A DNA stretch of 64,000 bases from Candidatus Hermodarchaeota archaeon (GCA_048885865.1 JBHLLF010000016.1:1-64000); one strand, 5' to 3'; positions 6,335 through 26,779 are shown, numbered from the stretch's first letter. Translations and numbers: made by a program. The notes: generated by a model not told the origin, from the sequence alone.

Positions 6335-7093
6335 TTATCGCGACGTAAATCCCCCATCCACGGGGAGAACAGCTCCAGTGATGAAAGACGACTCATCTGA
6401 AGCCAAGAAAAGCGCGGTATAGGCTACTTCTTCCGAAGTACCAAAGCGACCAACAGGGTAGTTCTTCAGCCGTCGCTCCCGAACTTCTTTCGGATCACCT
6501 TGCATCTGGATCACTCTTTCCAACATCGGGGTTTCGATTGCACCGGGACATATACAGTTGACTCTAACGTTGCCAGGACCGAGATCCACTGCAAGTGCTT
6601 TTGTTAGAGAGATGATCCCACCTTTTGCTGCAGAGTAGCTTGGAGAAAAGGAACCAACTAGGCCAGCGGCTGATGAATTGTTGATTATGACGCCCTTTCC
6701 TTTTTTCTCCATTTGTGGAAGAGCATGCTTGATACACAGAAAGGCAGACTTCAAATTGACACTGACCGACCTGTCCCACTCCTCCTCCGTTGTATATTGC
6801 AGACTCTTCACGACCTCCACGCCTGCGTTGTTGAAGAGGACATCTACCCCCCCGAGTTCTTCTGCCTTAGCAAACACGGATACGACATCCTCTTGCTTTG
6901 ACACGTCAGCTTTAACGAAATAAGCTGCACCTCCAGACTCCCTAATCGCAGCTTCGACCTCAGCCCCTTGAATGGCATCAATATCTGCACCAACCACAGT
7001 AGCCCCCTCCTCTGCAAACAATAGGGCAGACGCTCGACCAATTCCCGCACTTACTCCGGTAATAACCGCTATTCTATTCTCAAGTCGCCCCAC
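6335..7093 (-). CDS. Short-chain dehydrogenase/reductase
   Basis: TGVSAGIG, NNAG, YSAAK and VDGG motifs. Confidence 0.95.
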   Translation of the reverse strand: MGRLENRIAVITGVSAGIGRASALLFAEEGATVVGADIDAIQGAEVEAAIRESGGAAYFVKADVSKQEDVVSVFAKAEELGGVDVLFNNAGVEVVKSLQYTTEEEWDRSVSVNLKSAFLCIKHALPQMEKKGKGVIINNSSAAGLVGSFSPSYSAAKGGIISLTKALAVDLGPGNVRVNCICPGAIETPMLERVIQMQGDPKEVRERRLKNYPVGRFGTSEEVAYTALFLASDESSFITGAVLPVDGGFTSR

Positions 7094-7098
7094 TTCTC

Positions 7099-7923
7099 TC
7101 AGTCCTCCTGCTCGAGCCAGAACTTAGCAACCTCTATTGGAGTTGCTATCCAAACATCTCCATCTGTCTTCATCTTGATAATCAGGTTCTCAAGCATTTT
7201 GGCTCTTGAAGGGACACCCATGATTTGAGGATGCATCACGAGCATCATGTAGAGACCCTCCTCGTAGACAGCCTCAAACTCATCATACCAGATCTCGTAT
7301 ACCTTCCTATGGCTGTCGATGCCACTCTGATACTCAAGAGGGGGAAAGTAATTGAACCCAAAGAATGCCCAGTCGTCTAGAATCCACTTGAAAGGAAGCT
7401 CAACCATCCTCTTTCCGCCCACCTCCACGACATAGGGAAGGTCATCTCCCATCATTGTGCTATCGTACATGAAATCATACTCAGCCAAGAGCGAGTATGT
7501 GTTTTCGCTCATGTCTGCGGCTGGTGCACGATAGCCTTGAGGTTTCTCTGGAATCAGTGAATCTAGAGCTGCAAAGCCCTGCTCAAGCTCCTTGCGTTCC
7601 TCTTGAATGCCAAGGCTGGCTGGATTCCGATGAGAATATCCATGATGCCCAATCTCATGACCTTGACTGGCAATATCCTTCACACTATCAGGATAACGTT
7701 CAGCTACTTCCCCTGGAATATAGAAGCATGCTTTTACATTATGTTTGTCCAGAAGCCTCAATATACGTGGAAGCGCCGCTCTTGGACCATACTGCCCAAG
7801 TGAGAGAACTACTGGATTATCACGTTCAATCCTATTGCGTCTCAAGATATTGCGCCAAGAAATATCTGCATCAAGGTCAAAGGTTAGGCAAACTGCGCAT
7901 TTCGCTCCATTTTTCCACTCCAT
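7099..7923 (-). CDS. Polysaccharide deacetylase family (CE4, PuuE/PgdA-like) amidohydrolase
   Basis: TFDLDAD, HEIGHHGYSH, GYRAP and VMHP motifs; no signal peptide. Confidence 0.9.
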   Translation of the reverse strand: MEWKNGAKCAVCLTFDLDADISWRNILRRNRIERDNPVVLSLGQYGPRAALPRILRLLDKHNVKACFYIPGEVAERYPDSVKDIASQGHEIGHHGYSHRNPASLGIQEERKELEQGFAALDSLIPEKPQGYRAPAADMSENTYSLLAEYDFMYDSTMMGDDLPYVVEVGGKRMVELPFKWILDDWAFFGFNYFPPLEYQSGIDSHRKVYEIWYDEFEAVYEEGLYMMLVMHPQIMGVPSRAKMLENLIIKMKTDGDVWIATPIEVAKFWLEQED

Positions 7924-7996
7924 AATTGATTCTTCCTTTATTCAAGGTCTTAAATCACATTGGTCAGCGAAAAGCATATCGCATGACTGAGTTGAT

Positions 7997-8896
7997 CTAG
8001 ACTCTCCACTCACGGATGCTCTTCTGCACCTTCAATTCACCTAGCGTTTTGAGAATCTCACCTTCCTTGAACCTCTCATAGACGGGGAACTTCATGTTGA
8101 GAGGAGAATCCCTGAGACTTTTCCAAAGCGGCGTTATACCAAATGACCCATTCTGACGAATCCAGGCGACTTTATCCAGGTCGATGACTTCTGTCATAAT
8201 CTCCTCATGCGTGCCAACCTGCTGCAATACCCTGCCCTCTGGGTCTGCGAATATGGAAAGTCCTCCGCCTTTGGAACTAACGACGTTCGAGTTGAGGACA
8301 TAGCATTGGTGCATGATTGCTTGAGCAGGTACCAGAATCAACTCTGCTTGTCGGTCAGGCGTATAGGTCGCAGACGGCTGGAGAATGACATCAGCACCCA
8401 TCCATGCTAGCGTTCTGAATATCTCAGGAAACCACAAGTCATAGCAGATGACAAGACCCACTCTCGCGATTCCTGGAATATCGAAGGTCACGAAATCCGT
8501 CCCAAAATTCGTATCCTCAAAAGGCATCCAGGGATAGATCTTTCTATACTTAGCCACGAGTTCTCCTTTTGGATCGAATGCAATGGCCGTATTGAATATC
8601 CTGTCACCATCCTTTTCCAGAAATGAACCGGGCACAAACCAGCATTCAGTATCCCTAGCGATTTCTGAAAGTTTCTCCGTCATAGTATTTGGTATTGGTT
8701 GAGCCAATTCTTTCCAATCATCTTTTCCATACTGTTGGAGATATAGTTCTCCTGTGAAGACCAGATCAACCCACGGATAGGTTTTCCGTACCGACCTGGT
8801 TGTTTGTTCGAGATTGCTAAAGTTCTTGTCTTCATCATACGGATCTTTTTCTAGCTGGAGTCCAGCAACTCCAAGACATCTTCCCATTTTCATCAC
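7997..8896 (-). CDS. Carbon-nitrogen hydrolase (nitrilase/amidase family)
   Basis: Catalytic triad E (GELY), K (YRK), C (ICYDLWFPE). Confidence 0.93.
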   Translation of the reverse strand: MMKMGRCLGVAGLQLEKDPYDEDKNFSNLEQTTRSVRKTYPWVDLVFTGELYLQQYGKDDWKELAQPIPNTMTEKLSEIARDTECWFVPGSFLEKDGDRIFNTAIAFDPKGELVAKYRKIYPWMPFEDTNFGTDFVTFDIPGIARVGLVICYDLWFPEIFRTLAWMGADVILQPSATYTPDRQAELILVPAQAIMHQCYVLNSNVVSSKGGGLSIFADPEGRVLQQVGTHEEIMTEVIDLDKVAWIRQNGSFGITPLWKSLRDSPLNMKFPVYERFKEGEILKTLGELKVQKSIREWRV

Positions 8897-10689
8897 CTTT
8901 GTTCAACTAGCAATTCGTTAATCCCTTTCTCTACCCTCGTAAGAATCGTTGAAACCTGTTCAAGCTCTTTCTCAATGAGTCTATAGATCTTGGATCTTTC
9001 TTTCTCGAGCTTGGCTAGAGGCTTGTGAAGTGGTATCCAGTTGTAAGCCAAGTCTGGTTGACTCTCATATTTGTCAACATACTCGGGAGTCAGACTTCCC
9101 ACGGGAGTGCCCCTTAATGTCATTATAGCAGCGTTAAGCGCAACATAGTCTTCGATAAGCTCCAATCGTGACAAGTAGTCAACATCATCAGGAGCTGTTA
9201 CCCTCCATAGCCATCCAATCGTGGCATTAATCAGATAAGTAACTGAGCTCAGAAACCGATTTGCCTTCTGAATTAGCTGGTTGTCCCCTTTCTTGACAAT
9301 AGATTTCAGTTTCTTGTTGAACTGAACCTTCTTTGTGCGTATATCTCTGATTCGAAGTAGATGCTGTGTCATGTCAAAAGGACAATATCTCATCCTGCTA
9401 TACTTGGAGATGATATCTTCGAATCTCAATAAGGGAGTGAATATATCAATCGGCATGAGACTTGCATTCGCCAATTGGATGAGTGCATTTTTCATGAAAT
9501 TGGCATAGCGTAAAACTGCCTGGTAGTCTATATGGTCAAGGTCATCTTTCTGAGTCTGATATAGATGACTTGGAAATGTCACTCCGTATATGGTCGGCAC
9601 ACCTGAAATCTCAAAGAACCAGTGATCACTGCCGTATCCGGGAGGATTGTAGAATTCGAAACCTTGGAGTGATTTTTCTGCAGATTCAATGCCCTTAGCA
9701 AAATGCAGCAAATCTGCAGTGGTCCCAATAAATCTCTCAGCAGGCTTTGGAAATCCGACTGAATCAAGACTGAGAAAAGCTGCTACTTTGGAAACGTTTC
9801 GATTCCTTTCCAAATAGGCCCTAGAACCATTGCACCAGTAGTAGAATCCCTCATTGCCACCATTTTCTGCACCAAAGAACAAGAATCGCACACTTCTCTT
9901 CAATGCACCACCATTCTGTACATATTCTTGGAGTAACCGAGCCAGCTCCAGAAAAATAGCTACCGGAGCACAATTATCTGCAGCCCCTGTGAACCAGCTA
10001 TCCATGTGAGTTCCTACAAAGATTTCAGGTTCGGAACTGCTCTGCCCTTCTAGAACAGTTTCTATGTTCATTGACTCCGCAGTAGAGGAAACATCGACGT
10101 CCGCATCAATTTCCAACTCGACCTCACTCTCTTCTAGGAGGTTGAGTAGGTAAACGCCATCTTCCCTTGAGATGCTTATAACAGGAATCTTCAGCAGTCT
10201 ACCGGATTCGACTACCACCACTTTCCGAAGATCTCCTTCGTCAGGAGTTGAGATTAGAACTGCATCTAGTCCTCGTCGTATAGCTTCGTAGTAGGTGCGT
10301 GTAGGAGACGAGTAGAGGTGAGAGCCCCAATCAGACAGCCCTATTGAGGCACCATCATCGTTAGTTCCATTTTCGTCTAGTTGACTTATCTGTGTCAACT
10401 TCCCTATGGCTCTTAGGCTCTGAGAATATGGAAAGAGAGCGGCCTTGATTTCCTTCTCAATTGGTTTCAGAATTTTAATTCTGCAAGAATTGGGATTCCA
10501 GCCACGGATCTCAAAAGTCATAGTTTCTATTTCTTCATAGCCAAACCCGCGAAGACATTCAATAATGTATTCAGAAGCACGATGCTCATTCGGCGATCCG
10601 GCTATCTTATGTCCAATTGAATGTAAGTCAGTCATAGTTGCTCTAATCTTATCGAGTGAAGGATTCTCCACACCATAGCCTCCAAGCAT
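8893..10689 (-). CDS. M28 peptidase homolog with PA domain, paralog A (degenerate Zn site)
   Basis: THMDSW..GAADN, SLD and GSDH motifs, but GAEN and HLYQT. Start at 10689 (ATG) or 10671 (GTG). Confidence 0.85.
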   Translation of the reverse strand: MLGGYGVENPSLDKIRATMTDLHSIGHKIAGSPNEHRASEYIIECLRGFGYEEIETMTFEIRGWNPNSCRIKILKPIEKEIKAALFPYSQSLRAIGKLTQISQLDENGTNDDGASIGLSDWGSHLYSSPTRTYYEAIRRGLDAVLISTPDEGDLRKVVVVESGRLLKIPVISISREDGVYLLNLLEESEVELEIDADVDVSSTAESMNIETVLEGQSSSEPEIFVGTHMDSWFTGAADNCAPVAIFLELARLLQEYVQNGGALKRSVRFLFFGAENGGNEGFYYWCNGSRAYLERNRNVSKVAAFLSLDSVGFPKPAERFIGTTADLLHFAKGIESAEKSLQGFEFYNPPGYGSDHWFFEISGVPTIYGVTFPSHLYQTQKDDLDHIDYQAVLRYANFMKNALIQLANASLMPIDIFTPLLRFEDIISKYSRMRYCPFDMTQHLLRIRDIRTKKVQFNKKLKSIVKKGDNQLIQKANRFLSSVTYLINATIGWLWRVTAPDDVDYLSRLELIEDYVALNAAIMTLRGTPVGSLTPEYVDKYESQPDLAYNWIPLHKPLAKLEKERSKIYRLIEKELEQVSTILTRVEKGINELLVEQR

Positions 10690-10691
10690 CA

Positions 10692-11987
10692 CTACAGCTG
10701 CTTGAACTCCTTCTCGAGCAGGCTCAGAACTTTCTGAGATTCTTCCTCGGTCATGCACAGCGGAGGCTGGAGTCGAATAACATTCTTCTTTACTCCGCCT
10801 GTTCCAACCAAGACACCATTCTTCATGAGGTTCTTGGCTACTGACTGTGTTTCATCGACTGCGGGTTCCTTTGTACCTTTGTCCTTCACCAGCTCGATGC
10901 CTATCATGAGGCCCCTTCCTCGAACTTCGCCAATGTGTTTGTTGCCCTCTTGAACCTCCTTTAATTGCTTCATCAGACTGCCGCCAATCTTTTCTGAATT
11001 CTTGACCAGCCCTGCATCCTCAAGATAGTTGAGATTCTCTAGAGCGACAGCGCAGCAAACAGGATTCCCGCCAAAGGTTGAGAAGTGATCACCTGACTCT
11101 AGACAGTCTGCAATCTCGTCTGTAGTGATATAGCCGCCAATCGGCATCCCTGCACCCAATCCCTTTGCCATTGTGATGATATCAGGCTTGATTCCGAACT
11201 CTTCAATTGCAAACATCTTTCCTGTTCTTCCAAAGCCAGTCTGAACTTCATCAGCAATGTAGAGAATATCGTGGTCTTTGCAGATGTTTTGCACCAAGTC
11301 ATGATACTCCTTTGGGGGCACGACTAAGCCGCCCTCACCTATGATTGGCTCAATAATCATAGCTGCAACATCGCCTGTGGTATGATACTTGATGATTTCC
11401 TCGACTCTTCTTGCACATTCAGTGTTACAGTCAGGAAATTCAAGCGGGCATCTATAGCAATACGGCATTGGAGCATGCACAACACCGGGAGCATTGGCAA
11501 AAGTCCCAAAGCCATGCTTGTACTTTGATTGACCAGTCAGCGTTAGTGAGAGGCCAAGTCGGCCATGGAAGGAGCCCTCCAATGCAATGACACCGGCACC
11601 TGTACGGCCCTGAGTCACGCTATACTTCTTGGCAATCTTGACGCCCCCCTCAACAGCCTCGGCACCACTGTTGCAGAAGAATGATTTTGTTAGGCTGTCT
11701 GGTGTGAGACCAGCCAGTTTTTCAGCCAGCAATGTTTGAGGAACATTGTGATAGAGGCCAGAACAGTGAATGAGCTTCGATAATTGCTCCGCCCCTGCTT
11801 TTACAATCCTTTCTGGACTATGACCTGCATTCACAACCGAGATTCCACTAATACAGTCAATATACTCCGTTCCATCAAGATCTCGTACAATGGTGTTTTT
11901 CCCCTCGTAGATGACTATGGGTTTGCGAGCATATGCGGGGACCATGTACTTGGACTCTTTCTCGATTATTTCATCTCTATCTACCAT
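10692..11987 (-). CDS. Class III PLP aminotransferase (GABA/ornithine/putrescine-type)
   Basis: NSGAEAVE, SFHGR, DEVQTGFGRTG, MAKG and HFSTFGGNP motifs. Confidence 0.95.
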   Translation of the reverse strand: MVDRDEIIEKESKYMVPAYARKPIVIYEGKNTIVRDLDGTEYIDCISGISVVNAGHSPERIVKAGAEQLSKLIHCSGLYHNVPQTLLAEKLAGLTPDSLTKSFFCNSGAEAVEGGVKIAKKYSVTQGRTGAGVIALEGSFHGRLGLSLTLTGQSKYKHGFGTFANAPGVVHAPMPYCYRCPLEFPDCNTECARRVEEIIKYHTTGDVAAMIIEPIIGEGGLVVPPKEYHDLVQNICKDHDILYIADEVQTGFGRTGKMFAIEEFGIKPDIITMAKGLGAGMPIGGYITTDEIADCLESGDHFSTFGGNPVCCAVALENLNYLEDAGLVKNSEKIGGSLMKQLKEVQEGNKHIGEVRGRGLMIGIELVKDKGTKEPAVDETQSVAKNLMKNGVLVGTGGVKKNVIRLQPPLCMTEEESQKVLSLLEKEFKQL

Positions 11988-12068: not shown

Positions 12069-12115
12069 TGAACAACCATAAGAAGAGTGCCAACACTGTT
12101 GAACATCAATGAACA
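12069..12115 (-). promoter_or_regulatory. 47-bp four-box operator/promoter upstream of the aminotransferase operon
   Basis: TGTTCA-ttga-TGTTCA-acag-TGTTGG-cactcttcttatggt-TGTTCA on the minus strand. Confidence 0.85.
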
Positions 12116-12144: not shown

Positions 12145-13947
12145 CTAGTTTCCCACCAACTTGCTTAGATCCTCAAATATGCTACGTAACATTGTTGATA
12201 GGTTCTCTAGCTCCATCTCAATCTCTTTACCGATTCTGGCGCGTTCATTCTCTATATTTGCAATAGAGTCATGAATTCTTAGCCAATTGTAGGGATTATC
12301 AGGCTTTGACTCGATTCTTTTTGCAGAATCTAAGTCAAAAGTAGCTACTGGTATATTGCGTATGCTCTTGATGGCATTTGTCAGATGGATATAGTCCTCA
12401 ATCATCTCAAGACGGTAGAGATAGTCAATGCTGTAAGTTTCTATTGGACGCGTATTCCAGCCAATGGTTCGATTAAACCCATTGGCAGCTTTCAAGAGAA
12501 ACTTGTTGATTCCTGCCACATCATCCGGTTCATGCTGTTGGACCATTTTTGTGAAAGAGGATTTGAATTTCATTAGGCTCTTCACTTTGGCAATAATTGG
12601 TTCAAGATTAAATTCGTTTCCTTCCATTTTGTTGTATTTTGAGAGAATTGAGTCGAATCTCTCAAGTGGAACGAAGATATCCATTGGCAGCAAATCTGTG
12701 CTTGAGAGATAGGAAAGAGCCTTTTTCATGAACTCTGCATAGAATTGCAATGCATCATAGTCCAAATGGTCTGGATCATCCTTTGATGTGTGATATAGAT
12801 GACTTGGTTGAGCCATACCATGTTCTGATGGAACTCCTGATACACCATATATGGTTGGGACTCCTGATAATTCAAAGAACCAGTGGTCGCTGCCATAACT
12901 CGGTGGGATTCTATATGTCAAGGATCGAGATCTCCCATGTTCCACATTCAAAGATTTCGCGAATCCCAATAGCTCTCCGGTGGTTTGGAGATAGTCTATT
13001 GATGGGTTGGCATATCCTGTAGAGTCTAGACTCAAGACTGTCACGGTCCTGGAAACTGATTCTTTGTTATCTCTGACATAGGCTCTTGATCCATTTAGCC
13101 AGAAATAGAGGTTGTCGGTTCCACTTTCCTCAGCACCATAGAAAAGGAATCGTATGGTTCTTTTGGGAACTTCGCCTAGCTTTGATTGAGCATGGAAAAT
13201 TCTAGCAAGTTCGAGCACAATGGCTGCAGGAGCACAATTATCAGCTGCTCCTTGGAACCATGAGTCATAATGTGCTCCTATGACAATCTCTTCATTGGTT
13301 GTGCCATCACCCTCAAGAATCGCGACTACATTGAAGGAGTCCAGTTTTTCTGAAACCTCAACTTCCGTATCAATTCTAGCAACCACATCACCCTCGTTCA
13401 TCATTGAGAGCAGAGAATCTCCTTCTTCCTTTGTTATGCAGACAACCGGGATTTTGAGGTGTCTCTCCGGAATGACTACGACTTTCAGTAGGTCACCTTC
13501 ATCCTTTGCTGCTACAATCAAACCTTCATAGCCAAGTTTTGCAGCACGATAGTATGTATACCTTGGACTGAGATAGGTATCTGGTCCCCATTCAGTGAAG
13601 CCAATCAGACCCGTTCCTATTGAGGATGAACTCGGTTCATCTGCATCAATCTCCCAATCAACTGGGGCAAGCTTTCCTTCTACTGACTCAGATTTTCCAT
13701 GCGGAAATAGGGCAGATTCCACCTCCTTTTGAACCGGCTTCGTGATCTTGACACTACAGGATTTTGGTTCCCACCCAATCACATCGAATGGCTGCATCTC
13801 GACCTTCTTAAAACCAAAATCCAAAAGGCGGTCACGAAGATAGCTCGCGGCTTCAACCTCTGCCTTTGTTCCTGCAACCTTCTGTCCGAAGGCGCAAAGT
13901 TGCTCAACAGTATTTCTAATCTCTGAGATTGATGTCCTTTCAACCAT
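12145..13947 (-). CDS. M28 peptidase with PA domain, paralog B (intact Zn ligands)
   Basis: AHYDSW..GAADN, GAEES, SLD, GSDH and HLYHT motifs; helical C-terminal domain; no signal peptide. Confidence 0.9.
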   Translation of the reverse strand: MVERTSISEIRNTVEQLCAFGQKVAGTKAEVEAASYLRDRLLDFGFKKVEMQPFDVIGWEPKSCSVKITKPVQKEVESALFPHGKSESVEGKLAPVDWEIDADEPSSSSIGTGLIGFTEWGPDTYLSPRYTYYRAAKLGYEGLIVAAKDEGDLLKVVVIPERHLKIPVVCITKEEGDSLLSMMNEGDVVARIDTEVEVSEKLDSFNVVAILEGDGTTNEEIVIGAHYDSWFQGAADNCAPAAIVLELARIFHAQSKLGEVPKRTIRFLFYGAEESGTDNLYFWLNGSRAYVRDNKESVSRTVTVLSLDSTGYANPSIDYLQTTGELLGFAKSLNVEHGRSRSLTYRIPPSYGSDHWFFELSGVPTIYGVSGVPSEHGMAQPSHLYHTSKDDPDHLDYDALQFYAEFMKKALSYLSSTDLLPMDIFVPLERFDSILSKYNKMEGNEFNLEPIIAKVKSLMKFKSSFTKMVQQHEPDDVAGINKFLLKAANGFNRTIGWNTRPIETYSIDYLYRLEMIEDYIHLTNAIKSIRNIPVATFDLDSAKRIESKPDNPYNWLRIHDSIANIENERARIGKEIEMELENLSTMLRSIFEDLSKLVGN

Positions 13948-14024
13948 ATACAAATCCCCAGTGACTGATTGATACGATAGTCACACTGAATTGAGTGTGG
14001 GTTCGTACGTGTAACAACATAGTG

Positions 14025-14071
14025 TGAACAATCTAAAGAAAGGTCCCAACATGCATGTTCAACACTGAACA
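14025..14071 (-). promoter_or_regulatory. 47-bp four-box operator/promoter upstream of M28 paralog B
   Basis: TGTTCA-gtgt-TGAACA-tgca-TGTTGG-gacctttctttagat-TGTTCA on the minus strand. Confidence 0.85.
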
Positions 14072-15233: not shown

Positions 15234-15274
15234 CTAGTACTTTACGAACATCTTTATTTCAGGATGTGACATCT

Positions 15275-17304: not shown

Positions 17305-20031
17305 ATGAGGATGGCATTAAGAGACGTCTTGCTGAAACGAATAGCCCAGGCAATTGTGACAATCTTCATTGTACTTGCAATTGATTTCGTGATATTCCAC
17401 ATTCTTCCGGGCGACCCAATGACCTTTCTAGCTCGAAATCCAAACCTATCGGAAGTCGCCCAAGAGAGAATGATTGAGCAGTTTGGACTTGATAAACCAC
17501 TATGGGAGCAATTCATTCTCTTTCTTGCTAATTTCCTCCAAATGAGACTAGGTATGTCTTTCCATTTCCGAGAAGAAGTAGGACCGATTATAATTCACCA
17601 CCTAGGAAATACTCTGATTCTAGTATTGCCTGCATCTATTGGGGCGATAGTCATAGGAATTTGGGTGGGAAAGAACTCAGCTTGGCGTCGTGGCAAAGCA
17701 GGCGATTTAGTCGGCCTTCTATTCTCGTTAATCACTTACTCAATTCCCACGTTTTGGCTAGGCATGTTCTTCATCATGCTGTTTGCATTTGGCCTTGGGT
17801 GGTTCCCTGCAACTCCAGGCTTGACTACCCCCGGCATGGATTTCACTGGTGATCCTGTCGGTTTGATTATAGATATGATTTCTCACTTGATGCTTCCATG
17901 GACGGTGCTCATTGTAGCAATCCTTGGCTCTTTTGCTCTAATTACTAGGAACGCACTACTTGATGTATTGAGCGAGGACTACATGCTTACTGCCAAAGCA
18001 AAGGGGAGAACTGAGAAAGATCAGCTGAATAAGGAAGCGATGCCGAATGCTATGATCCCCATTACAACGGTGATCGCTCTTCAGCTTGGATTTTCAGTTG
18101 CAGGGGCACTTCAGACTGAAGTCGTATTTTCTTATCCTGGCATCGGGAATCTAATTTGGGAAGGAGTCTACTATCGCGACTATCCGCTTTTGCAGGCTGC
18201 GTTCTTTATGATAACCGTAGTAGTGGTGTTTGCCAATCTCATTGCGGACTTCATCTATTTCTATCTAGACCCAAGAATTAGAGTTGGTGCTGAATTCACA
18301 ATAAGTGAGGAGAAACCTCCAAGACCGCTCTCTCATTATGGCTTGGCAGTGATAGCAGTAGTGGCACTATTGTCTACGTGGGCTGTAATAGGTATAACCA
18401 CAGTTCTTCCGCTCTTCATTCTCATACTAATCATAAAAAGAAAGCCTGTTCTGCAATTCTTAAAGGCTCGACTTAGCACACTAACTCCCTCAAACCTTCT
18501 TTACGCTTGGAAGACCAAACGGTCACAGATTCTAGTTCGATTCTCTGCGATTTCCCTAGTTATCAATTTGATTGCTTTAAGCATCATAGCGATATCAGGA
18601 GTCTTCATCCCTGAATGGGGCTTCTTCTGGGGCGCTGCATTTTTCGGATTACGGTCGTTCCCCCCCATTCCACCAGGAATGGAATATCCGGAATGGTCTT
18701 TGGCTCTAGCATCAATTGCCCATCCATCAGTTATGCAAATCGCCCTTACTGGCATAGCGTTAGGAGTCATCTTGGGTAGGAGAAAAAGCCTCGGTGCCAC
18801 CTCAAGTCGATTCATGAAAACACGTATGGGCACAGTTGGAATCTCCCTTGTGGCAATGTTCGCAGGAATGACGCTCTTTGGAGATATTATTGCCCCATAT
18901 AATCCTGAGGCATTTTTCACTGGAATATGGTATCAGCCTCCTGATATTATGCCAGAGATGCAAATGCTCATGGTAACAGGGGGCGCGGCATCACTTATTG
19001 GTGCGACAATAATCTGGTGGATATTTGATCGTATAAAACAGCCTGCTATTCCTAGACACTTCATTTCAATTCTAACTGGAGGACTCATTCTATTTGTTTC
19101 ATTGTTATTTGCGGAACGGTCTCTCCAGGTTGAAAATCAAGCTACCTTGGTCTATTCTGTAGGGATTGGACTCATCGCGGTCGTTATCATTCTGAGAAGC
19201 TTAATGACAGCAAGACAAGATTCCATCCTTCAGAGTCTAAAAATGCACCTTCCAAGATTATTAATCGCTCTAGTGGGTGTGATAGGAGTTGGCGTTCTAG
19301 TCCAGGGCATTCTTCAAGCACCTTGGGCAGTCCCTCTTGATTTTCCAGGTTACCACCTTATGGGTACGGACCAATTGGGTAGAGATGTATATAGCCAACT
19401 AATTATCGCTGTGAGGATCACACTTCTGATTGGAATCGTTGCTACAACGATGTCTGTCATTATAGGCACTCTGATAGGCCTTGTTGCAGGCTACTATGGT
19501 GGAATTATCGACTCCTTCCTGATGCGATTCACAGACATATTTTTCGTAATCCCGAGTCTACTACTAATGATTGTTATGGCTGCTGTCTTGGGACCGTCGA
19601 TTGTGACGCTCATTATTGTGATTGGTCTGTTCTCTTGGTCCTCCACCGCACGCATTGTAAGAGGGCAGGTACTATCGGTTAAAGAACGGACTTACATCGA
19701 GAGGGTGAGAGCGGTTGGCGGGGGCAATTTCTACATCATGGGCAAGCATGTTCTGACGGCTGTTGCTCCACTTGTTGTTGCCAACACAATCCTTGTGACT
19801 GCGTGGGCGATTCTCTCAGAAGTCGTCTTGGATTTCTTTGGCCTTGGAGACCCTGCTATGATAAGCTGGGGCACTATGCTATATCTCGCATTTAATGCTG
19901 GTTCGATGTCTAATAACCTGTGGTGGCTAGTATTTCCCCCAGGAATCATGGTTGTGCTTCTCCTCCTCGGTGTGTCAATGGTAGGATACGCCATGGATGA
20001 GATTGTTAATCCAAGACTTAGGAGGAGGTAG
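17305..20031 (+). CDS. Fused OppB/OppC-type ABC permease with extra TM segments
   Basis: OppB motifs (LPGDP, EDYMLTAKAKG, RDYP, LDPRIR) and OppC motifs (MGTDQLGRD, YIERVRAVG, NPRLR) in one 908-aa ORF. Confidence 0.92.
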   Translation: MRMALRDVLLKRIAQAIVTIFIVLAIDFVIFHILPGDPMTFLARNPNLSEVAQERMIEQFGLDKPLWEQFILFLANFLQMRLGMSFHFREEVGPIIIHHLGNTLILVLPASIGAIVIGIWVGKNSAWRRGKAGDLVGLLFSLITYSIPTFWLGMFFIMLFAFGLGWFPATPGLTTPGMDFTGDPVGLIIDMISHLMLPWTVLIVAILGSFALITRNALLDVLSEDYMLTAKAKGRTEKDQLNKEAMPNAMIPITTVIALQLGFSVAGALQTEVVFSYPGIGNLIWEGVYYRDYPLLQAAFFMITVVVVFANLIADFIYFYLDPRIRVGAEFTISEEKPPRPLSHYGLAVIAVVALLSTWAVIGITTVLPLFILILIIKRKPVLQFLKARLSTLTPSNLLYAWKTKRSQILVRFSAISLVINLIALSIIAISGVFIPEWGFFWGAAFFGLRSFPPIPPGMEYPEWSLALASIAHPSVMQIALTGIALGVILGRRKSLGATSSRFMKTRMGTVGISLVAMFAGMTLFGDIIAPYNPEAFFTGIWYQPPDIMPEMQMLMVTGGAASLIGATIIWWIFDRIKQPAIPRHFISILTGGLILFVSLLFAERSLQVENQATLVYSVGIGLIAVVIILRSLMTARQDSILQSLKMHLPRLLIALVGVIGVGVLVQGILQAPWAVPLDFPGYHLMGTDQLGRDVYSQLIIAVRITLLIGIVATTMSVIIGTLIGLVAGYYGGIIDSFLMRFTDIFFVIPSLLLMIVMAAVLGPSIVTLIIVIGLFSWSSTARIVRGQVLSVKERTYIERVRAVGGGNFYIMGKHVLTAVAPLVVANTILVTAWAILSEVVLDFFGLGDPAMISWGTMLYLAFNAGSMSNNLWWLVFPPGIMVVLLLLGVSMVGYAMDEIVNPRLRRR

Positions 20032-21026
20032 TGGAGCAAATGACTGAAGCATCATCACAAATCCCTGCTGGTCAACCCCTACTCAAGGTATCAGGTCTGA
20101 AAGTGTACTATCATATATCCCAAGGAATCGTCAAAGCAGTCGACGAAATCGATTTCACAGTGAACTGCGGAGAGTTTGTTGGGCTTAGCGGGGAAAGCGG
20201 CTGTGGAAAGACAACCACTGCGATGACATTGATGAAGATTCTCCCTCGAGAAGGAGTCATTGAAGGAGGGCAAGCTCTCTTCAACAACCGTGACATTCTC
20301 ACCATGAAGACAAAGGAGATTCAGGCATTTCGTTGGCAGGAAATATCAATGGTCTTTCAGGGAGCCATGAACTCACTAAATCCAGTGCATCGTGTAATTG
20401 ACCAAATGGTGAAAGCAATACAAATCCACCAGCGTATGCCGCGAGAGAAGGCTAGAGAAATAGCACTTGAACTTATAGAATCCGTGGGAATTGACAAATC
20501 GAGAGCAAGAGCATATCCTCATGAACTTAGTGGGGGAATGAAACAACGTCTAATGATTGCCCTCGCTCTTGTGCTACATCCGCCCCTTGTTATTGCTGAT
20601 GAACCAACCACTGCGCTGGATGTGATGATCCAAGCACAGATTCTTGATCTCTTCAAGCAACTCAGAAAAAGAACAAGTCTATCTCTCCTAATAATAACAC
20701 ACGACTTGTCAGTCCTAGCTGAAACCTGTGACAAGGTGATCATAATGTATGCTGGAAAGATAGTAGAAGAGGCTTCGACTGAGATACTCTTCAACGAACC
20801 AGCACACCCCTATACCAGGAAGCTCATTTCATCATTCCCAAGCATTCTCGCCGATAAGGAGATAGACTTCATCCCAGGAAATCCACCAGATCTGATTGAC
20901 CCCCCGGTAGGATGTAACTTCCATCCAAGGTGCAGTTATGCAGCTGATATCTGCAAAACTGAAGAGCCTCCACTTATTGACGAAGGAGGACATAGAGTGG
21001 CTTGTTTTAGGAGGAATGAGATTTAA
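20031..21026 (+). CDS. Opp/Dpp-type ABC ATPase (OppD-like)
   Basis: GESGCGKTT, LSGGMKQR and DEPT motifs; C-terminal Cys cluster. Confidence 0.95.
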   Translation: MEQMTEASSQIPAGQPLLKVSGLKVYYHISQGIVKAVDEIDFTVNCGEFVGLSGESGCGKTTTAMTLMKILPREGVIEGGQALFNNRDILTMKTKEIQAFRWQEISMVFQGAMNSLNPVHRVIDQMVKAIQIHQRMPREKAREIALELIESVGIDKSRARAYPHELSGGMKQRLMIALALVLHPPLVIADEPTTALDVMIQAQILDLFKQLRKRTSLSLLIITHDLSVLAETCDKVIIMYAGKIVEEASTEILFNEPAHPYTRKLISSFPSILADKEIDFIPGNPPDLIDPPVGCNFHPRCSYAADICKTEEPPLIDEGGHRVACFRRNEI

Positions 21027-22012
21027 TGCAGAACGCAATTCTGGAAACCAGAAACCTCAAGAAATGGTTCACGGTGAGGGCTGGGTTCCTCTCAAGCCTC
21101 ATCTCAAAAGGATCTGACACCTTTATTCGGGCTGTTGATGGAGTTGACCTAGAGATCAACCAAGGCGAGGTCTTTGCGATTGCAGGAGAAAGCGGTTGTG
21201 GAAAGACCACAATTGCAAGACTGATTATGCGATTAGAATCGTTGACCGACGGTGAGATTTGGTTCGAGGGAGAGAAAATCTCTGCATTGAATGAGGGTAA
21301 GTTCAAGGAGTATCGAAGAAGAATCCAGATGATTTTCCAAGACCCATACGGTTCGCTTAGCAATAATATGACGATAGGCGAGATTGTGGCAGAGCCTCTC
21401 AAGATTCATAGTGTCTACGCCTCATCAAGTGAAATCGAAGAGCGTGTGCTAGCTGCACTTGAGGACGTAGGCCTTCGTCCTGCAAAGGAGTTTGCAAGTA
21501 GGATACCCCATGAATTGAGTGGAGGACAAAGGCAACGTGTGGCAGTGGCTGCAGCACTCGTATTGAATCCCGTTCTTCTCATTGCTGACGAACCAGTTTC
21601 GATGCTAGATGTTTCAATGAGGGGACAGATTCTGAAGCTATTGCTTGAGCTCCGGGAAAAGAAAGGAATCACGCTAGTGTTGATAACACATAATCTGGCT
21701 GTAGCCAAACAGATGTCAGATAGGATTGCAGTTGCATACCTGGGCAGAGTTGTTGAAACTGGAGTTACTAAAGACATCATCGACAACCCAAGCCATCCCT
21801 ACACAAAAGCGCTGGTTTCAGTCGTCCCTGTTCCAGAAACTGGTGTAAAAAGAGAAAGACTCCTTCTCACAGGGGAGATTCCAAGTCCGATTGACATCCC
21901 AACAGGTTGTAGATTTCATACTCGGTGCCCATTTGCAAAGGAAAAGTGCAGCGTGGAAGAACCTGAACTGAAGACAATGCCCGATGGACGGCAAGTCGCC
22001 TGCCATGATTAG
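21026..22012 (+). CDS. Opp/Dpp-type ABC ATPase (OppF-like)
   Basis: GESGCGKTT, LSGGQRQR, DEP and GCRFHTRC motifs. Confidence 0.95.
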   Translation: MQNAILETRNLKKWFTVRAGFLSSLISKGSDTFIRAVDGVDLEINQGEVFAIAGESGCGKTTIARLIMRLESLTDGEIWFEGEKISALNEGKFKEYRRRIQMIFQDPYGSLSNNMTIGEIVAEPLKIHSVYASSSEIEERVLAALEDVGLRPAKEFASRIPHELSGGQRQRVAVAAALVLNPVLLIADEPVSMLDVSMRGQILKLLLELREKKGITLVLITHNLAVAKQMSDRIAVAYLGRVVETGVTKDIIDNPSHPYTKALVSVVPVPETGVKRERLLLTGEIPSPIDIPTGCRFHTRCPFAKEKCSVEEPELKTMPDGRQVACHD

Positions 22013-22020: not shown

Positions 22021-22067
22021 TGTTCATCATTGTTCATATGTGTTGGGAGTGCTTTTCATCATGTTCA
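22021..22067 (+). promoter_or_regulatory. 47-bp four-box operator/promoter upstream of the corrinoid/methyltransferase pair
   Basis: TGTTCA-tcat-TGTTCA-tatg-TGTTGG-gagtgcttttcatca-TGTTCA. Confidence 0.85.
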
Positions 22068-22110: not shown

Positions 22111-22758
22111 ATGAGTGATGCAATTGAGAATCTGAAACAAGCTGTTATTGATGGTGATGCAGAGGCTGTTTCCAAATACTCCACTGAGGCAATAGAATCC
22201 GGTGCAGCACCTCTGGATATTCTGGAAAGGGGCATCTCTGAAGGGGCGAAAACAGTGGGTGAGCAATTTGAACGAATGGAGATCTTCCTCACTGAGCTAA
22301 TGCTTTCAGGAGAAGCTATGATGGCGGGGCTAGAAGTGGTTCTGCCGCATATTGAAGCTGGGGATGTACCACAGAGGGGAAAGGTCGTAGTAGGCACAGT
22401 GCGAGGCGATATCCATGAGATTGGTAAGAACATCTTCAAGTCACTCCTTGTAGCTAATGGGTTCGAAGTGAGTGACATAGGCGTTGATGTCCCAACATCC
22501 AAGTTCATTGAAGAGGCTGAGAGGATAAACGCCGATATCATAGCCATATCAGCACTCATGACTTCAACACTTGGAGGGCAGAAGGATGTCATTGACTATC
22601 TTGAGCAGTCTGGTAAACGAGGAGAATTCATGGTAATGGTTGGAGGGGGTCCCACCAATCAGGAATGGGCAGACGAGATAGGAGCAGATGGCTTTGCAGA
22701 AACTGCACCTGAAGCTGTGAGGGTGGCCATGCAACTCGTTGAGAAAAGGAGGGGCTGA
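22111..22758 (+). CDS. Methyltransferase cognate corrinoid protein (MtmC/MtbC-like)
   Basis: GTVRGDIHEIGKN (DxHxxG), SALMTST and VGGGP..IGADG motifs. Confidence 0.95.
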   Translation: MSDAIENLKQAVIDGDAEAVSKYSTEAIESGAAPLDILERGISEGAKTVGEQFERMEIFLTELMLSGEAMMAGLEVVLPHIEAGDVPQRGKVVVGTVRGDIHEIGKNIFKSLLVANGFEVSDIGVDVPTSKFIEEAERINADIIAISALMTSTLGGQKDVIDYLEQSGKRGEFMVMVGGGPTNQEWADEIGADGFAETAPEAVRVAMQLVEKRRG

Positions 22759-22762: not shown

Positions 22763-24142
22763 ATGATTCCAATCATCGAGATTGCTAAAAGAGCACTTGA
22801 CGGAAAGCCGCTCATAGAAAAAGAGTATGACATGAGGGTATTTTCTCCTAGGGTCCGAGAACTTGTAAAGGAGTATGGTATTAGCTATGATCCCGATGTT
22901 CTGGTTCCATCAGATGATGGTCTCGCGGACGCAGTATTCAAAGCGGCCTTTGATCTCATCTGTAACGTGGGAGTATATTGTAAAGACACAGAGCGGATCA
23001 TTGCCTTCGAAGAGAAAGAGGTTCGCAGCGAACTGAAGACCTCTTTTGACCACGCTGTTCTAGGAGAAGGAATGGAACAGAGAACTTTGCTACCGAGGAA
23101 ACCAGAATCCAAGGAAAAACCATGGATATTCGCTGGAGCGGGTGGTGTAACTGTTTCAGATGAGAGTATCTTCGTGCGTCTTGTGGAGAATTATGCAAAG
23201 AGAATTCCAATTGCCAATGCCATCACAACCCCATGCTTGCTCTCTGTTGATGGCGCCAATATCAGGGCCAAATCACCTCTTGAAATCGAAGGCTCAATTC
23301 GCACAGTTGTTTTGGGCAGAGAAGCTCTGAGAAGAGCAGGTCGGCCTGGACTTCCTATTATGAATGCTATTGGCACAGCAGAATCAGCGATTGCACTAGC
23401 ATCTGGACTTCATCCAGATTTTGGCCTACGGAAGACAGATGGATATATGATTGCAGAGCTAGCAGAACTCAAGACAGATCTGGATCTCCTCAACCGAGCA
23501 GCATTATTGCAATCACTGAATGTACCCATTGCTGGAATATATGGCCCAATCTATGGAGGATTCGCAGGTGGAGCAGAAGGCACAGCTGTCACCAGTACTG
23601 CATTTCACATTCAGGGGATTCTCACCTACGGTGCTTCATGGACACTCTGTTTCCCCATTCATATCAAGTATACATCAAGCTCATCACCTGAACTGATATG
23701 GCTGGCTGCTCTCTACTCACAGGCTGTCAGCAGAAACACAAAGGTTCCAGCGCTTTATTACAACTACACTGCTGCAGGCCCTTGTACAGAGATGGTCCTT
23801 CAGGAATTTGCTGCAGAGTTCATTGCAGCTGTTTCCTCAGGAGCCTCAATAGAAACTGGAGGAGTGGCAAAAGGGAAATACTTTGACTATCTGACACCCA
23901 TTGAGCCTATGTTTGCTTCAGAAGTAGCGTATGCAACCGCGGGCGTTAAGAGATCTGACGCAAATGAAATTGCTAAACAGATTGTGCCAAAGTTCATTGA
24001 CAAGGTTCCTGATCCTCCAAGAGGCAAGCGTTTCCAAGAATGCTGTGACATGGTGACCGGGGACCCTTCAAAGGAATGCTTTGAGATATACGAGAAGGTG
24101 AAGAAGGAGGTTTCTGACCTCGGAATCGAGTTTCTTTATTGA
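22763..24142 (+). CDS. mtmB: Monomethylamine methyltransferase MtmB-family protein, pyrrolysine-free
   Basis: DGLADAVFKAAF, YCKDTERII, AGRPG, ELKTDLD, PIYGGFAGG, AGPCTEM and PRGKRFQEC match MtmB; no in-frame TAG. Confidence 0.88.
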   Translation: MIPIIEIAKRALDGKPLIEKEYDMRVFSPRVRELVKEYGISYDPDVLVPSDDGLADAVFKAAFDLICNVGVYCKDTERIIAFEEKEVRSELKTSFDHAVLGEGMEQRTLLPRKPESKEKPWIFAGAGGVTVSDESIFVRLVENYAKRIPIANAITTPCLLSVDGANIRAKSPLEIEGSIRTVVLGREALRRAGRPGLPIMNAIGTAESAIALASGLHPDFGLRKTDGYMIAELAELKTDLDLLNRAALLQSLNVPIAGIYGPIYGGFAGGAEGTAVTSTAFHIQGILTYGASWTLCFPIHIKYTSSSSPELIWLAALYSQAVSRNTKVPALYYNYTAAGPCTEMVLQEFAAEFIAAVSSGASIETGGVAKGKYFDYLTPIEPMFASEVAYATAGVKRSDANEIAKQIVPKFIDKVPDPPRGKRFQECCDMVTGDPSKECFEIYEKVKKEVSDLGIEFLY

Positions 24143-24145: not shown

Positions 24146-25288
24146 TTAGCCCAATCGATATTTCCTGCCAATCTCTGGCTTCTCTCCGAAGTAGAGGACA
24201 GCAGTAGAAACACCTTCTTCACGCGCGAACTCGTCCACTCCCTCAAAACGCAGCAAAGCGAGAAGGAGCTTTAGCCCCAGGTCCTTCATGAAGGATGTTC
24301 GTGACCTCAATTGCACTCGGGTCAGCTCGTTATCTGTCCTCACATCGCACTTCTCAAGGAGTCCTAGAGAAGTCACACCCAATGCAACTCGCTTTACAAT
24401 GTCAACAATACTGGTTGGAGTTTCGAGTCCGTGGGGGTCCATCTGCTCAATGTGATCTCGAACGCTGATCACCGTTCGTTCATCCAAGGCATCCTTTATC
24501 GTATGATGCATTAGCCATTCAAGTAATGAAGGGCTCAACGTAACGGCTCCACTTTGGCCTGCCTGCATGAGCATGATTTCTCTACGTTCCTGCCATAGAC
24601 TGAGAACTCGTCTGTCACGGTCTTCTTTAATGGTGCTAAAGACACGAGAATCAACCCACATCACACTGATTTTATTCTCAGCAACAACTTCTGCATCAAC
24701 AGTATACCCAGCTTCATCCCACTCAGCTATAAGCATCAACAGGAGAATCTCTGGTTGTTCACGCATGAGCTTGGCCGTTGCTAGAATGGTCTTACGCTCG
24801 GGATGAATCTCGACAGACCCAAAGATGCCCATTCTTTCCAGAAGCTTCACATTGCTCACAAATGAGTCAAATGAGTTTTTCCACATCTCCTGTGGAATGG
24901 TTCCTAGTCCGCGAAGTAGTTTCGTTTGTTGATGACCGATTCTTTGAAGCCTGGATATGAGTTCCGAAGCTCCTTGACCAGAACAACCAAGCTGGGCTAA
25001 GACAGATAGAACTTGAGAGCTCACAAGACCCATGTCAGCAGAATCGATAAGTGATCTGCGTAGGTTTGACACCTCCATGGCCTCGCATTCATCACAACTT
25101 GGTATATCTCGTCTAGTGCTGTAGAAATCTACTGCTTCCTCCAATACATCATTGATGCGACCTGTTTCACCAGCCAAATCATGAAGAAGCTGACGTGTGC
25201 CTGCAGAAATGGTAGTATGGAGATGCACTCTTGACGCAGAAGACTTGCGCCTCTCAGACTCCGCAGCTCTTCCTTGTTCTTTCCTCAT
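24146..25288 (-). CDS. Putative transcription regulator: N-terminal ribbon-helix-helix, CxxC, tandem ligand-binding-like domains
   Basis: RVHLHTTIS-AGTRQLLHDLA-GRINDVLEEAVDFY strand-helix-helix pattern, then SCDEC. Start uncertain. Confidence 0.65.
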   Translation of the reverse strand: MRKEQGRAAESERRKSSASRVHLHTTISAGTRQLLHDLAGETGRINDVLEEAVDFYSTRRDIPSCDECEAMEVSNLRRSLIDSADMGLVSSQVLSVLAQLGCSGQGASELISRLQRIGHQQTKLLRGLGTIPQEMWKNSFDSFVSNVKLLERMGIFGSVEIHPERKTILATAKLMREQPEILLLMLIAEWDEAGYTVDAEVVAENKISVMWVDSRVFSTIKEDRDRRVLSLWQERREIMLMQAGQSGAVTLSPSLLEWLMHHTIKDALDERTVISVRDHIEQMDPHGLETPTSIVDIVKRVALGVTSLGLLEKCDVRTDNELTRVQLRSRTSFMKDLGLKLLLALLRFEGVDEFAREEGVSTAVLYFGEKPEIGRKYRLG

Positions 25289-25404
25289 GAACATCATCTC
25301 AAGAAGCATGTTCACAATAGCGTCTCCAAGATGATGGTGTGAACATAAGGTCTCCGTACAAACTGGATCGAATGGAGCTGTGTTGAGTCATGTACATATC
25401 AACA
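25288..25404. promoter_or_regulatory. TGWWCA boxes in the divergent regulator/M20 intergenic region
   Basis: TGAACA 25288, TGTTCA 25309 (15-nt spacer), TGAACA 25340, TGTTGA-N4-TGTACA 25381-25396, TCAACA 25399. Confidence 0.65.
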
Positions 25405-25477
25405 CAAAATATGAAGAACAGCAGATTTAATCAAAGCGTATGCATTGCAGAATCAAGATGGAGGCATTAGGTCATCG

Positions 25478-26779
25478 ATGACAAGCGAACAGAGAAAGTC
25501 AACAACCAAATCAGCCCTCAATTGGATTGATGATAACCAAGAACGTCTCATAGGTCTGACACAAGATCTAGTCCGAATTCCTAGCATCTCAGGAGAAGAG
25601 TATGAGGTTCAGAAAAGGGTGTTCAAGGAGCTAGAAGGGATGAACCTTAGGCCAGAGTTCTTCAATCCTGATGAAAAGAGGCTTCGGAGTCACAAAGACT
25701 TCTTTGAAACAACATCATTTGTTAGATATGGTTATGACAACAGACCAAATGTGGGAGGAGTTTGGAAGGGATCAAGTGGAGGAAGATCCATCTGTCTGAG
25801 CGGACATGTAGATGTGGTATCACCGGAACCATTGGACCAGTGGACAAGCAACCCTTGGTCCGGAGATGTCGTGGATGGCAACATTCACGGCAGAGGTGCA
25901 GGGGATATGAAAGCAGGAGTTGCCGCTATGATCTTTGCAGTGCAAGCGCTTCAAGAGAATGGCATCAGGTTGAAGGGTGATGTCCAAGTTGAAACCACCA
26001 TCGAAGAGGAGGATGGAGGAGTTGGAGGAGTTTTCTATATGAGGACTGTAAGACCAAAGACAGATGCCGCATTTGTCCCAGAACCGACAAATCTCATGAT
26101 TACACTTGCTAGTGCAGGGGTCATGTATTTCCGAGTGACGGTTCCAGGTATGCCAGCGCACGCAGCTACAGCCCACTTTGGTGTGAATGCCGTCCAGAAG
26201 ATGATACCAGTAATTAATGCCATTCAGAAACTCCATGAGGCCCGTCAGGCTAGAATCAGATACAGTTACGCAGAAACAGATTCTAGAATGAAAGGAAGAG
26301 CCACTACAATCAATATTGGAGTCATCAGGGCGGGGGATTGGCCTTCCACAGTTCCAGGCACATGCACGATTGAGTGCAGGATAGGATTCCCGCCAGGAGA
26401 AACTCGCGAAGAAGTGATAAAGCAAGTTGAGGATGCTGTTAGCAAAGCGACGGAGGGAGATGAGTGGCTTAGAAATAATCCTCCTGTTGTGGAATGGTTT
26501 GGATGGAAAGCACGCCCCCATGAGTTGGATGCAAATAATGACTTTGTACAGCTTGTCAAACAGAGTGTTATTCACGTGGCTGGCCGAGTACCAGACTTCG
26601 TTGGAGGTTCAGCAGGCCTAGATACCAGATTCTTTGTGCATCATGGAGTTCCCGCATTAACCTGTGGCCCACTGGCAGAGAGGATCCACTCCTTCGATGA
26701 AATTGTAAGCGTTGAATCTATTGTGCAGACATCTCAAATCATTGCAAAGACAATGCTCGAGTGGTGCGGCACTCAATAG
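25478..26779 (+). CDS. M20 family ArgE/DapE-like deacylase
   Basis: GHVDVV, GRGAGDMK, EEEDGG, EPT and IHSFDE motifs. Confidence 0.93.
   Translation: MTSEQRKSTTKSALNWIDDNQERLIGLTQDLVRIPSISGEEYEVQKRVFKELEGMNLRPEFFNPDEKRLRSHKDFFETTSFVRYGYDNRPNVGGVWKGSSGGRSICLSGHVDVVSPEPLDQWTSNPWSGDVVDGNIHGRGAGDMKAGVAAMIFAVQALQENGIRLKGDVQVETTIEEEDGGVGGVFYMRTVRPKTDAAFVPEPTNLMITLASAGVMYFRVTVPGMPAHAATAHFGVNAVQKMIPVINAIQKLHEARQARIRYSYAETDSRMKGRATTINIGVIRAGDWPSTVPGTCTIECRIGFPPGETREEVIKQVEDAVSKATEGDEWLRNNPPVVEWFGWKARPHELDANNDFVQLVKQSVIHVAGRVPDFVGGSAGLDTRFFVHHGVPALTCGPLAERIHSFDEIVSVESIVQTSQIIAKTMLEWCGTQ

Follow-up and report, generated by a model that had tools for sequence, protein, structure and literature searches.

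A stretch of 64,000 nucleotides of archaeal DNA (GCA_048885865.1, JBHLLF010000016.1:1-64000; hereafter, the window) carries, at positions 6335-26779, a conserved and co-regulated gene island of about 20 kb in which a peptide-type importer is encoded together with six different enzymes that cleave amides and a pyrrolysine (Pyl)-free, B12-dependent demethylase of the MtmB family. On balance, we read this island as an accessory, ligand-controlled regulon of Thorarchaeota for the uptake and dismantling of a small multi-amide compound, probably an N-methylated one. The reading draws on the gene families encoded, on an operator that occurs nowhere else in the genome in its strict form, and on the conservation and co-occurrence of the genes in related genomes.

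The window is contig C16 of genome G000, an assembly of 3.58 Mb in 117 contigs that is 87% complete. Its MtmB homolog is most similar (88-96% identity) to proteins from metagenome-assembled genomes labelled Candidatus Thorarchaeota or Promethearchaeota, and the host is therefore placed, by sequence, among the Asgard archaea, in the Thorarchaeia. Gene families were assigned by Pfam and NCBIfam profile scans of open reading frames (ORFs), and the island was compared across 87 Thorarchaeia species genomes from 17 genera; the MtmB clade was also surveyed in 185,579 species genomes, which yielded 79 loci.

Operator and conservation of the island

Boxes of the sequence TGAACA or TGTTCA are concentrated in the intergenic regions of the island. 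With a cluster defined as at least three such boxes within 60 bp, seven clusters were found genome-wide, compared with 0-2 in block shuffles; five of the seven lie in the window, four of them between island genes and one inside an ORF. The last (39790-39852), with its irregular spacing, was taken as chance and rejected as a member of the regulon. In the same genome-wide scan, box spacing in multiples of approximately 10.3 nt was confined to the island. A strict 47-bp pattern of four boxes, TGWWCA-N4-TGWWCA-N4-TGTTGG-N15-TGWWCA, has exactly three matches in the 3.58-Mb genome, all of them inside the island. Operator A (12069-12115, minus strand) faces the aminotransferase operon, and operator B (14025-14071, minus strand), in the divergent region between the genes for the M28 family protein M28a and the BPL_N surface hydrolase, faces M28a; both have orthologous sites in G010 and G067. 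Operator C (22021-22067, plus strand) faces the corrinoid-MtmB operon, and 11 other genomes have an orthologous site ahead of their corrinoid gene. Two further promoters carry variant arrays with box spacings of 10, 20, 21, or 31 nt: that of the substrate-binding protein (SBP) gene has four boxes at 10-nt spacing (15177-15212, plus strand) upstream of TTTTAA at 15218, and the shared regulator/M20 region (25288-25345) has boxes at 25288, 25309, and 25340, separated by 21 and 31 nt. The N15 spacer of the strict operator is T-rich and may contain a weak TATA element, or alternatively TATA-like words after the fourth box may serve; in either case, the 47-bp site appears from its sequence to overlap or abut the core promoter. 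Between the SBP and permease genes, a hairpin with a perfect 12-bp stem and a T-run (17242-17268, plus strand), holding one box in each arm, looks like an intercistronic terminator. Each of its arms is an operator box plus six bases, so that the regulator may also act at this terminator.

The 47-bp pattern was found again at orthologous corrinoid, aminotransferase, and M28a promoters in at least 11 other Thorarchaeota genomes, namely, G010, G067, G059, G041, G057, G060, G055, G063, G064, G036, and G068, and the more distant locus L003 has box triplets with 10/31 spacing and a site resembling the regulator/M20 array at 12563/12583/12614. Of the 87 Thorarchaeia species genomes, 17 carry the MtmB clade; they belong to 4 of the 17 genera. 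When island proteins were searched by tblastn around these MtmB genes, the same genes appeared on every contig of sufficient length to judge, in an order and orientation that vary among G010, G067, G082, G051, G055, and partial contigs. The regulator gene adjoins MtmB in the other MtmB-positive genomes, and the gene for the short-chain dehydrogenase/reductase (SDR) is co-conserved in G067, G082, G051, G055, and G025. Identities of the island proteins range from 43 to 95%, being lowest (43-55%) for M28b, BPL_N, SBP, and the regulator.

A first-pass annotation, made from the sequence of the window alone, had described four transcription units with one operator architecture as a regulon rather than chance neighbors, built around MtmB, and had named homologs that never co-occur elsewhere as what would speak against it. 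The single architecture was essentially right, in that three promoters match exactly, and has to be relaxed for the SBP and regulator/M20 promoters with their variant arrays. Our neighborhood check found the gene set recurring in other Thorarchaeota, and because it recurs in shuffled order with the same operator at orthologous promoters, the genes are a regulon, as had been claimed. Comparison of these sequences thus strongly supports one functional, co-regulated unit.

The central position given to MtmB did not hold up. G025 (85% complete) contains the regulator, importer, BPL_N protein, aminotransferase, M28, CN-hydrolase, M20, carbohydrate esterase 4 (CE4) enzyme, and SDR, yet neither MtmB nor a corrinoid gene within 40 kb, and no MtmB was found elsewhere in the genome; the P0176 contigs of an abundant population have the same MtmB-less layout. 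Among the 79 MtmB-clade loci, only those of Thorarchaeota (at least 74% identity) carry the island. Loci of Bathyarchaeia, Methanomethylicia, Thermoplasmata, and others (43-63% identity) have the corrinoid gene, and sometimes MtrH and RACo or aldehyde:ferredoxin oxidoreductase (AFOR), and never the regulator, BPL_N, M28, CE4, or CN-hydrolase. By this distribution, MtmB is a recruited add-on module and not the core of the island; in the simplest history, a widespread archaeal corrinoid-MtmB cassette would have been recruited into a Thorarchaeal amide-utilization locus and put under its operator.

The BPL_N-Opp-hydrolase layout itself forms a multi-copy locus family in Thorarchaeia. At least one paralogous locus is known, L038:1-20960, which encodes BPL_N, a split SBP, OppBCDF, an AsnC-type regulator, and two class-III pyridoxal phosphate (PLP) enzymes, together with M20, M28, CN-hydrolase, CE4, two amidohydrolase-superfamily genes, an Ntn hydrolase, and a creatinase-like M24, and it has no MtmB. 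In the single-contig genome CP070658.1 (L013, at G059:C1:706420-708981, and L014), only the genes for the regulator, MtmB, and corrinoid protein and a shortened OppF are left of the island, and this copy looks decayed or rearranged. Genomes of the same genus without the island were inspected for an empty insertion site, but the DUF1614 flank is absent there too.

Gene products of the island

Every gene named in the first-pass annotation was confirmed by ORF listing and profile matches, including the Pyl-free MtmB. The MtmB-family methyltransferase (MT1; 22763-24142, plus strand) matches PF05369 with 321 bits against a cut-off of 25, and its ORF is uninterrupted, without an in-frame UAG or other stop. 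A HMMER alignment to MtmB1 of Methanosarcina barkeri (1L2Q) spans residues 17-465 (E = 2e-66). In this alignment Pyl202 is matched by Met, followed by a four-residue insertion; Glu205 is retained, and residues 229 and 259 of MtmB1 correspond to Met and Ile. The Met-Asn pair at the Pyl position is invariant in all 34 clade members sampled. Adjoining MT1 is a corrinoid protein (22111-22758, plus strand; MtmC/MtqC-like) with B12-binding and B12-binding_2 domains and a DxHxxG motif, and the pair is kept in nearly all 79 loci. One non-Pyl MtmB, MtqB, has been proven to transfer methyl groups from a methylammonium to a corrinoid (PMC13044021), in line with the role proposed here for the MtmB homolog.

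As the first-pass annotation had remarked, the window lacks a methyl-acceptor enzyme (MT2) and a RamA-type activator: no MtrH, URO-D, or RACo gene was found on contig C16. In CP070761.1, a complete genome, the genes follow one another as corrinoid, MtmB, MtrH-like, RACo/RamA-like, regulator, and Opp. The genome of the window encodes MtrH-like and RACo/RamA-like proteins on another contig (G000:C3:142885-146300; L006, L008), which are 62% and 53% identical, respectively, to the in-island proteins of CP070761.1; a further corrinoid protein is encoded in this cluster, which lies beside genes for a 4Fe-4S protein and a DNA methylase. By this similarity, the C3 pair is the seemingly missing MT2 and activator, and we infer the functional link; neither a strict operator site nor a box cluster was found upstream of these genes. 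The C3 cluster is probably an MT2/activase set shared by several methyltransferase systems. G000 also carries Mch of the tetrahydromethanopterin (H4MPT) branch, six URO-D family matches, two MttB-family genes, and ten B12-binding matches. By analogy with what has been proposed for other non-methanogenic archaea, the methyl acceptor is likely to be H4MPT, reached via MtrH (PMC11291895).

Other methyltransferase genes were noted in passing. At G000:C2:152968-154790, a corrinoid gene is followed by an MttB-family match with one in-frame TAG and one TGA, which could be a Pyl-type or a broken trimethylamine methyltransferase. An AFOR gene stands beside the MtmB clade in about eight loci of Thorarchaeota, Bathyarchaeia, and Thermoplasmata (L050, 7383-9212 in L002; L054, L055, L084, L095, L099, L105, and L110), which hints that an aldehyde arises downstream of demethylation. 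A non-Thorarchaeal contig (L010:7234-11380) has two divergent corrinoid-MtmB pairs back to back, along with MtrH, RACo, and AFOR.

The importer has all the parts of an Opp/Dpp-type system, namely, a family-5 SBP, two permease domains, and two ATPases with an oligo_HPY C-terminal domain; ABC systems that depend on an SBP are importers. The SBP (15224-17212, plus strand, likely start 15275; SBP_bac_5, 2e-53) showed, in NCBIfam and PDB sequence searches, weak similarity to peptide-binding and NikA binding proteins only. It is followed by a fused OppB-OppC permease (17305-20031, plus strand), which has two BPD_transp_1 stretches and OppC_N, and by the ATPases OppD (20031-21026) and OppF (21026-22012), both on the plus strand and each with ABC_tran and oligo_HPY. 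Upstream of the SBP gene lies that of the BPL_N protein (14149-15132, plus strand; BPL_N, 4e-25), in which a signal peptide is combined with a linker rich in Ser and Thr and a transmembrane helix at the C-terminus; the SBP is anchored in the same way. In 35 homologs of the BPL_N protein, Cys126 is present in at least 90%, and His238 and Glu240 are invariant. The AlphaFold2 model (pLDDT 85.7) matches Pdx2 best in Foldseek (TM-score 0.83), then HisH and TrpG, so that the class I glutamine amidotransferase (GATase) fold is found together with a Cys-His-Glu triad. The BPL_N protein is therefore predicted, from its model, to be a surface amide or gamma-glutamyl-type hydrolase. Surface proteins of this type form a multi-copy family, found in 57 of the 87 Thorarchaeia genomes in as many as eight copies; the two further copies in G000 (C6:41209-42153 and C23:27776-28516) are not beside island-like genes.

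The cytoplasmic enzymes are encoded mainly in a tight minus-strand operon of aminotransferase, M28b, CN-hydrolase, CE4, and SDR genes, from which M28a stands apart. The first gene of the operon (10692-11987; Aminotran_3, 4e-118) encodes a class-III (omega) aminotransferase or racemase-family PLP enzyme; among solved chains it comes closest to GabT, Ile 2-epimerase, and acetylornithine aminotransferase, and archaeal racemases/epimerases are near too. M28b (8893-10758, minus strand, likely ATG at 10689; Peptidase_M28, 1e-26) and M28a (12145-13953, minus strand; Peptidase_M28, 1e-33; matches to 2ek8 and GCPII) both lack a signal peptide and share a GCPII/TfR-like layout of protease, PA, and helical domains. 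Metal ligands, assigned from sequence motifs and not from structure, are all intact in M28a (HYDS, AADN, AEESG, LDS, and SDH); in M28b, AENGG replaces AEESG, changing a ligand Glu to Asn, and the other ligand motifs are kept. With this one zinc-ligand Glu being Asn in M28b, the two paralogs may act as a hetero-oligomer. The nitrilase-superfamily amidase (7997-8896, minus strand; CN_hydrolase, 3e-34), in which the Glu, Lys, and Cys motifs can be read, is nearest to Nit2 (2w1v) and archaeal chains 3ivz/1j31, and the CE4-fold amidohydrolase (7099-7923, minus strand; Polysacc_deac_1, 1e-21), which is PuuE/HpPgdA-like, is nearest to 3rxz, 3qbu, and the PuuE allantoinase 3cl6. The SDR oxidoreductase (6335-7093, minus strand; adh_short_C2, 1e-65) is the last gene of the operon. 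At the other end of the island, the M20 deacylase of the ArgE/DapE family (25445-26779, plus strand; Peptidase_M20 and M20_dimer) reaches 279 bits against a cut-off of 218 for TIGR01910, with 3pfo as its nearest solved chain.

The putative regulator (24146-25294, minus strand, within a 389-aa ORF at 24146-25315) is divergent from the M20 gene. Its N-terminus contains a conserved RVHLHTTIS segment, with a predicted extended stretch followed by two helices, and an invariant CxxC and an alpha/beta region of about 300 residues, a putative sensor, make up the rest. Searched whole and as two pieces against Pfam and NCBIfam, including ribbon-helix-helix (RHH) families, it matched nothing, in Pfam even at E = 10. 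An AlphaFold2 monomer model (pLDDT 75) places, with low confidence, helices at residues 31-40 and 47-63 after the extended segment; Foldseek gave weak matches to H-NOX, V4R, TRAPP, and BcsD, and a wide VIA-align search gave mostly helical-hairpin matches, which were uninformative. A homodimer prediction for the N-terminal 126 residues scored 0.38 against a mark of 0.42 and was not used as evidence. From sequence and model, the protein looks like an RHH-like head joined to a CxxC and a sensor domain outside known families, which makes it a candidate for a new archaeal transcription-factor family with a known putative binding site.

Proposed pathway and competing explanations

We infer the following order of events from the enzyme families and their predicted locations. 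The membrane-anchored GATase-fold hydrolase, with its Cys-His-Glu triad, would trim the substrate outside the cell, and the anchored family-5 binding protein and Opp-type ABC system would bring the product in. The two cytoplasmic M28 proteins, the M20 deacylase, the nitrilase-family amidase, and the CE4 amidohydrolase would then open the remaining C-N bonds. The Pyl-free MtmB homolog would transfer the N-methyl group to the Co(I) corrinoid protein, from which the MtrH-like methyltransferase, whose gene lies on C3 in this genome and within the island in the relative CP070761.1, would pass it to H4MPT; the RACo/RamA-like protein, similarly located, would reactivate the corrinoid. Finally, the class-III PLP enzyme, by transamination or racemization, and the SDR would process the demethylated amine backbone. 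One regulator would govern all units, probably by binding TGWWCA boxes one helical turn apart on or beside the core promoter, and it would most likely be a repressor that is released by the substrate.

As to that substrate, the methyl-lysine peptides, methylated polyamines, and aromatic amines named in the first-pass annotation gained no specific support. Hydantoin/creatinine-type, gamma-glutamyl/polyglutamate, muropeptide, and methyl-lysine substrates were considered from the enzyme families and not adopted, there being no evidence that discriminates among them. A broader proposal is offered tentatively, as possible rather than probable: the surface-hydrolase and Opp loci of Thorarchaeota may be amide-linked small-molecule utilization loci, comparable to polysaccharide utilization loci, and in one subtype the Pyl-free MtmB may demethylate a secondary or tertiary N-methyl amine freed by the island amidases, such as an N-methyl amino acid or an N-methyl omega-amine. 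If this is true, non-Pyl MtmB enzymes would have a second, chemically different substrate class, and an Asgard archaeon would have a direct path from organic N-methyl groups to the H4MPT C1 pool under an undescribed regulator family.

Several observations weigh against a single pathway of uptake, amide cleavage, and demethylation. Islands with the same regulator type and no MtmB exist (G025 and P0176), which implies that the hydrolytic pathway works without demethylation. The active-site motif of the MtmB clade is invariant also in lineages that have no island, so that MtmB may act on some common free methylamine that has nothing to do with the imported compound. No CdhC turned up in the 87%-complete genome, a point that concerns the fate of methyl-H4MPT. 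None of the island enzymes reaches an NCBIfam equivalog cut-off, and thus none of the steps can be given a substrate; when all enzymes and the SBP were searched against NCBIfam and PDB sequences, the matches stayed at family level and identified no substrate. Lastly, the RHH assignment of the regulator consists of a sequence pattern and a predicted strand-helix-helix order.

The chief rival, which we regard as somewhat unlikely, separates two functions under one regulator: the importer and hydrolases would degrade an unmethylated amide or peptide-like compound, and the corrinoid-MtmB pair would be an independent free-methylamine cassette that was inserted beside the island and gained the same operator, for instance because the two substrates co-occur. 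The MtmB-less islands fit this explanation, as do the occurrence in Bathyarchaeia and Thermoplasmata of the MtmB clade, with its invariant Met-Asn, by itself or beside MtrH, RACo, or AFOR, and the presence of several other corrinoid methyltransferase systems in the genome. However, the corrinoid-MtmB pair is adjacent in 17 of the 18 species-level genomes that have this regulator type, despite repeated rearrangement; the module has its own exact operator copy, kept in 11 genomes; and no separate free-methylamine transporter is found within the island.

A metal or metallophore system appears improbable. In such a system, the NikA/CntA-like SBP and Opp would take up an opine-like chelator of nickel or cobalt, a NikR-like RHH protein with Cys ligands would sense the metal, the hydrolases, aminotransferase, and SDR would recycle the chelator, and the corrinoid module would gain cobalt. 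NikR consists of an RHH domain and a C-terminal ligand domain, a layout that the RHH-like head and invariant CxxC of the regulator recall, and the best NCBIfam matches of the SBP are NikA, Opp4A, and CntA, with NikA chains among its PDB matches. Yet these SBP scores are far under the cut-offs (125 vs 393 bits, and 78 vs 800) and no better than those to peptide binders, six amide hydrolases would be unexpected for metallophore recycling, and the C-terminal region of the regulator has no match to NikR-type domains. That the genes are chance neighbors and the boxes a generic Thorarchaeal promoter motif, as the shortness of the word TGAACA/TGTTCA and clusters elsewhere (on C6, and inside the ORF at 39790-39852) might suggest, is very improbable, given that the strict pattern and the helical-turn spacing are both restricted to the island and that the pattern tracks the genes through rearrangements in other genomes.

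Comparison with known systems

More than 1000 non-Pyl MtmB sequences are known, and only one has a demonstrated function, namely, MtqB, which acts with MtqC as a tetramethylammonium/choline:corrinoid methyltransferase in Methanococcoides methylutens Q3c; non-Pyl MtmBs have been noted in Asgard archaea, with roles unknown (PMC13044021). MttB-like/MtrH methylotrophy has been proposed for Asgard archaea, in which MtrH-like genes lie beside methyltransferase genes (PMC11291895). Our literature searches turned up no description of the island, whereas the general concept of MtrH-linked Asgard methylotrophy is published (PMC11291895); the regulon, operator, and regulator are well founded, and new in detail. 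The island gives a large archaeal non-Pyl MtmB clade a defined genetic context, comprising an importer, a screenable binding protein, and a regulator with a precise operator, and the MtmB substrate question thereby becomes experimentally approachable. It also indicates how sediment Asgard archaea may, in the absence of methanogenesis, use amide-linked organic matter as a source of methyl groups and nitrogen.

The regulator resembles RHH regulators of the NikR/CopG/MetJ type in its predicted strand-helix-helix head and putative ligand-sensing C-terminal part, and in an operator whose short repeats are spaced by one helical turn, the distal half-site lying two turns off; it differs from them in having no RHH profile match and in its C-terminal 300 residues, which are of another family. 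The importer shares with Opp/Dpp/Nik family-5 importers of opine and peptide utilization loci the SBP_bac_5 protein, two permease domains, two oligo_HPY ATPases, and neighboring hydrolases. Unlike in those systems, the permeases are fused here, the SBP and surface hydrolase are anchored by C-terminal transmembrane helices, and similarity to characterized binders is weak.

Compared with MtmB1/MtmC/MtbA/RamA of Methanosarcina barkeri (1L2Q/1NTH), the methyltransferase module has full-length MT1 homology, the same logic of MT1 plus corrinoid protein, and a RamA-type activator, whereas it has no Pyl codon, carries Met-Asn and a 4-residue insertion instead, and would use a different MT2. Non-Pyl MttB systems, both those of the MtgB/MtgC/MtgA type and the Asgard MttB-like/MtrH ones, likewise have a Pyl-free MT1 and corrinoid protein that feed a pterin C1 carrier in a non-methanogen; however, the island enzyme belongs to the MtmB superfamily and not to MttB/COG5598, and those systems have no link to peptide-type import or an amidase battery. 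The closest counterpart in kind, by its published description, is MtqB/MtqC, in which a Pyl-free MtmB-family enzyme likewise has a dedicated corrinoid protein. The MtqB clade is described as having a Met/Cys/aromatic signature in its pocket (PMC13044021). The host of MtqB is a methanogen, where methyl groups reach coenzyme M through an MtbA-type MT2, whereas the module described here has a predicted MtrH-like partner and a non-methanogenic Asgard host and is embedded in an importer/amidase regulon.

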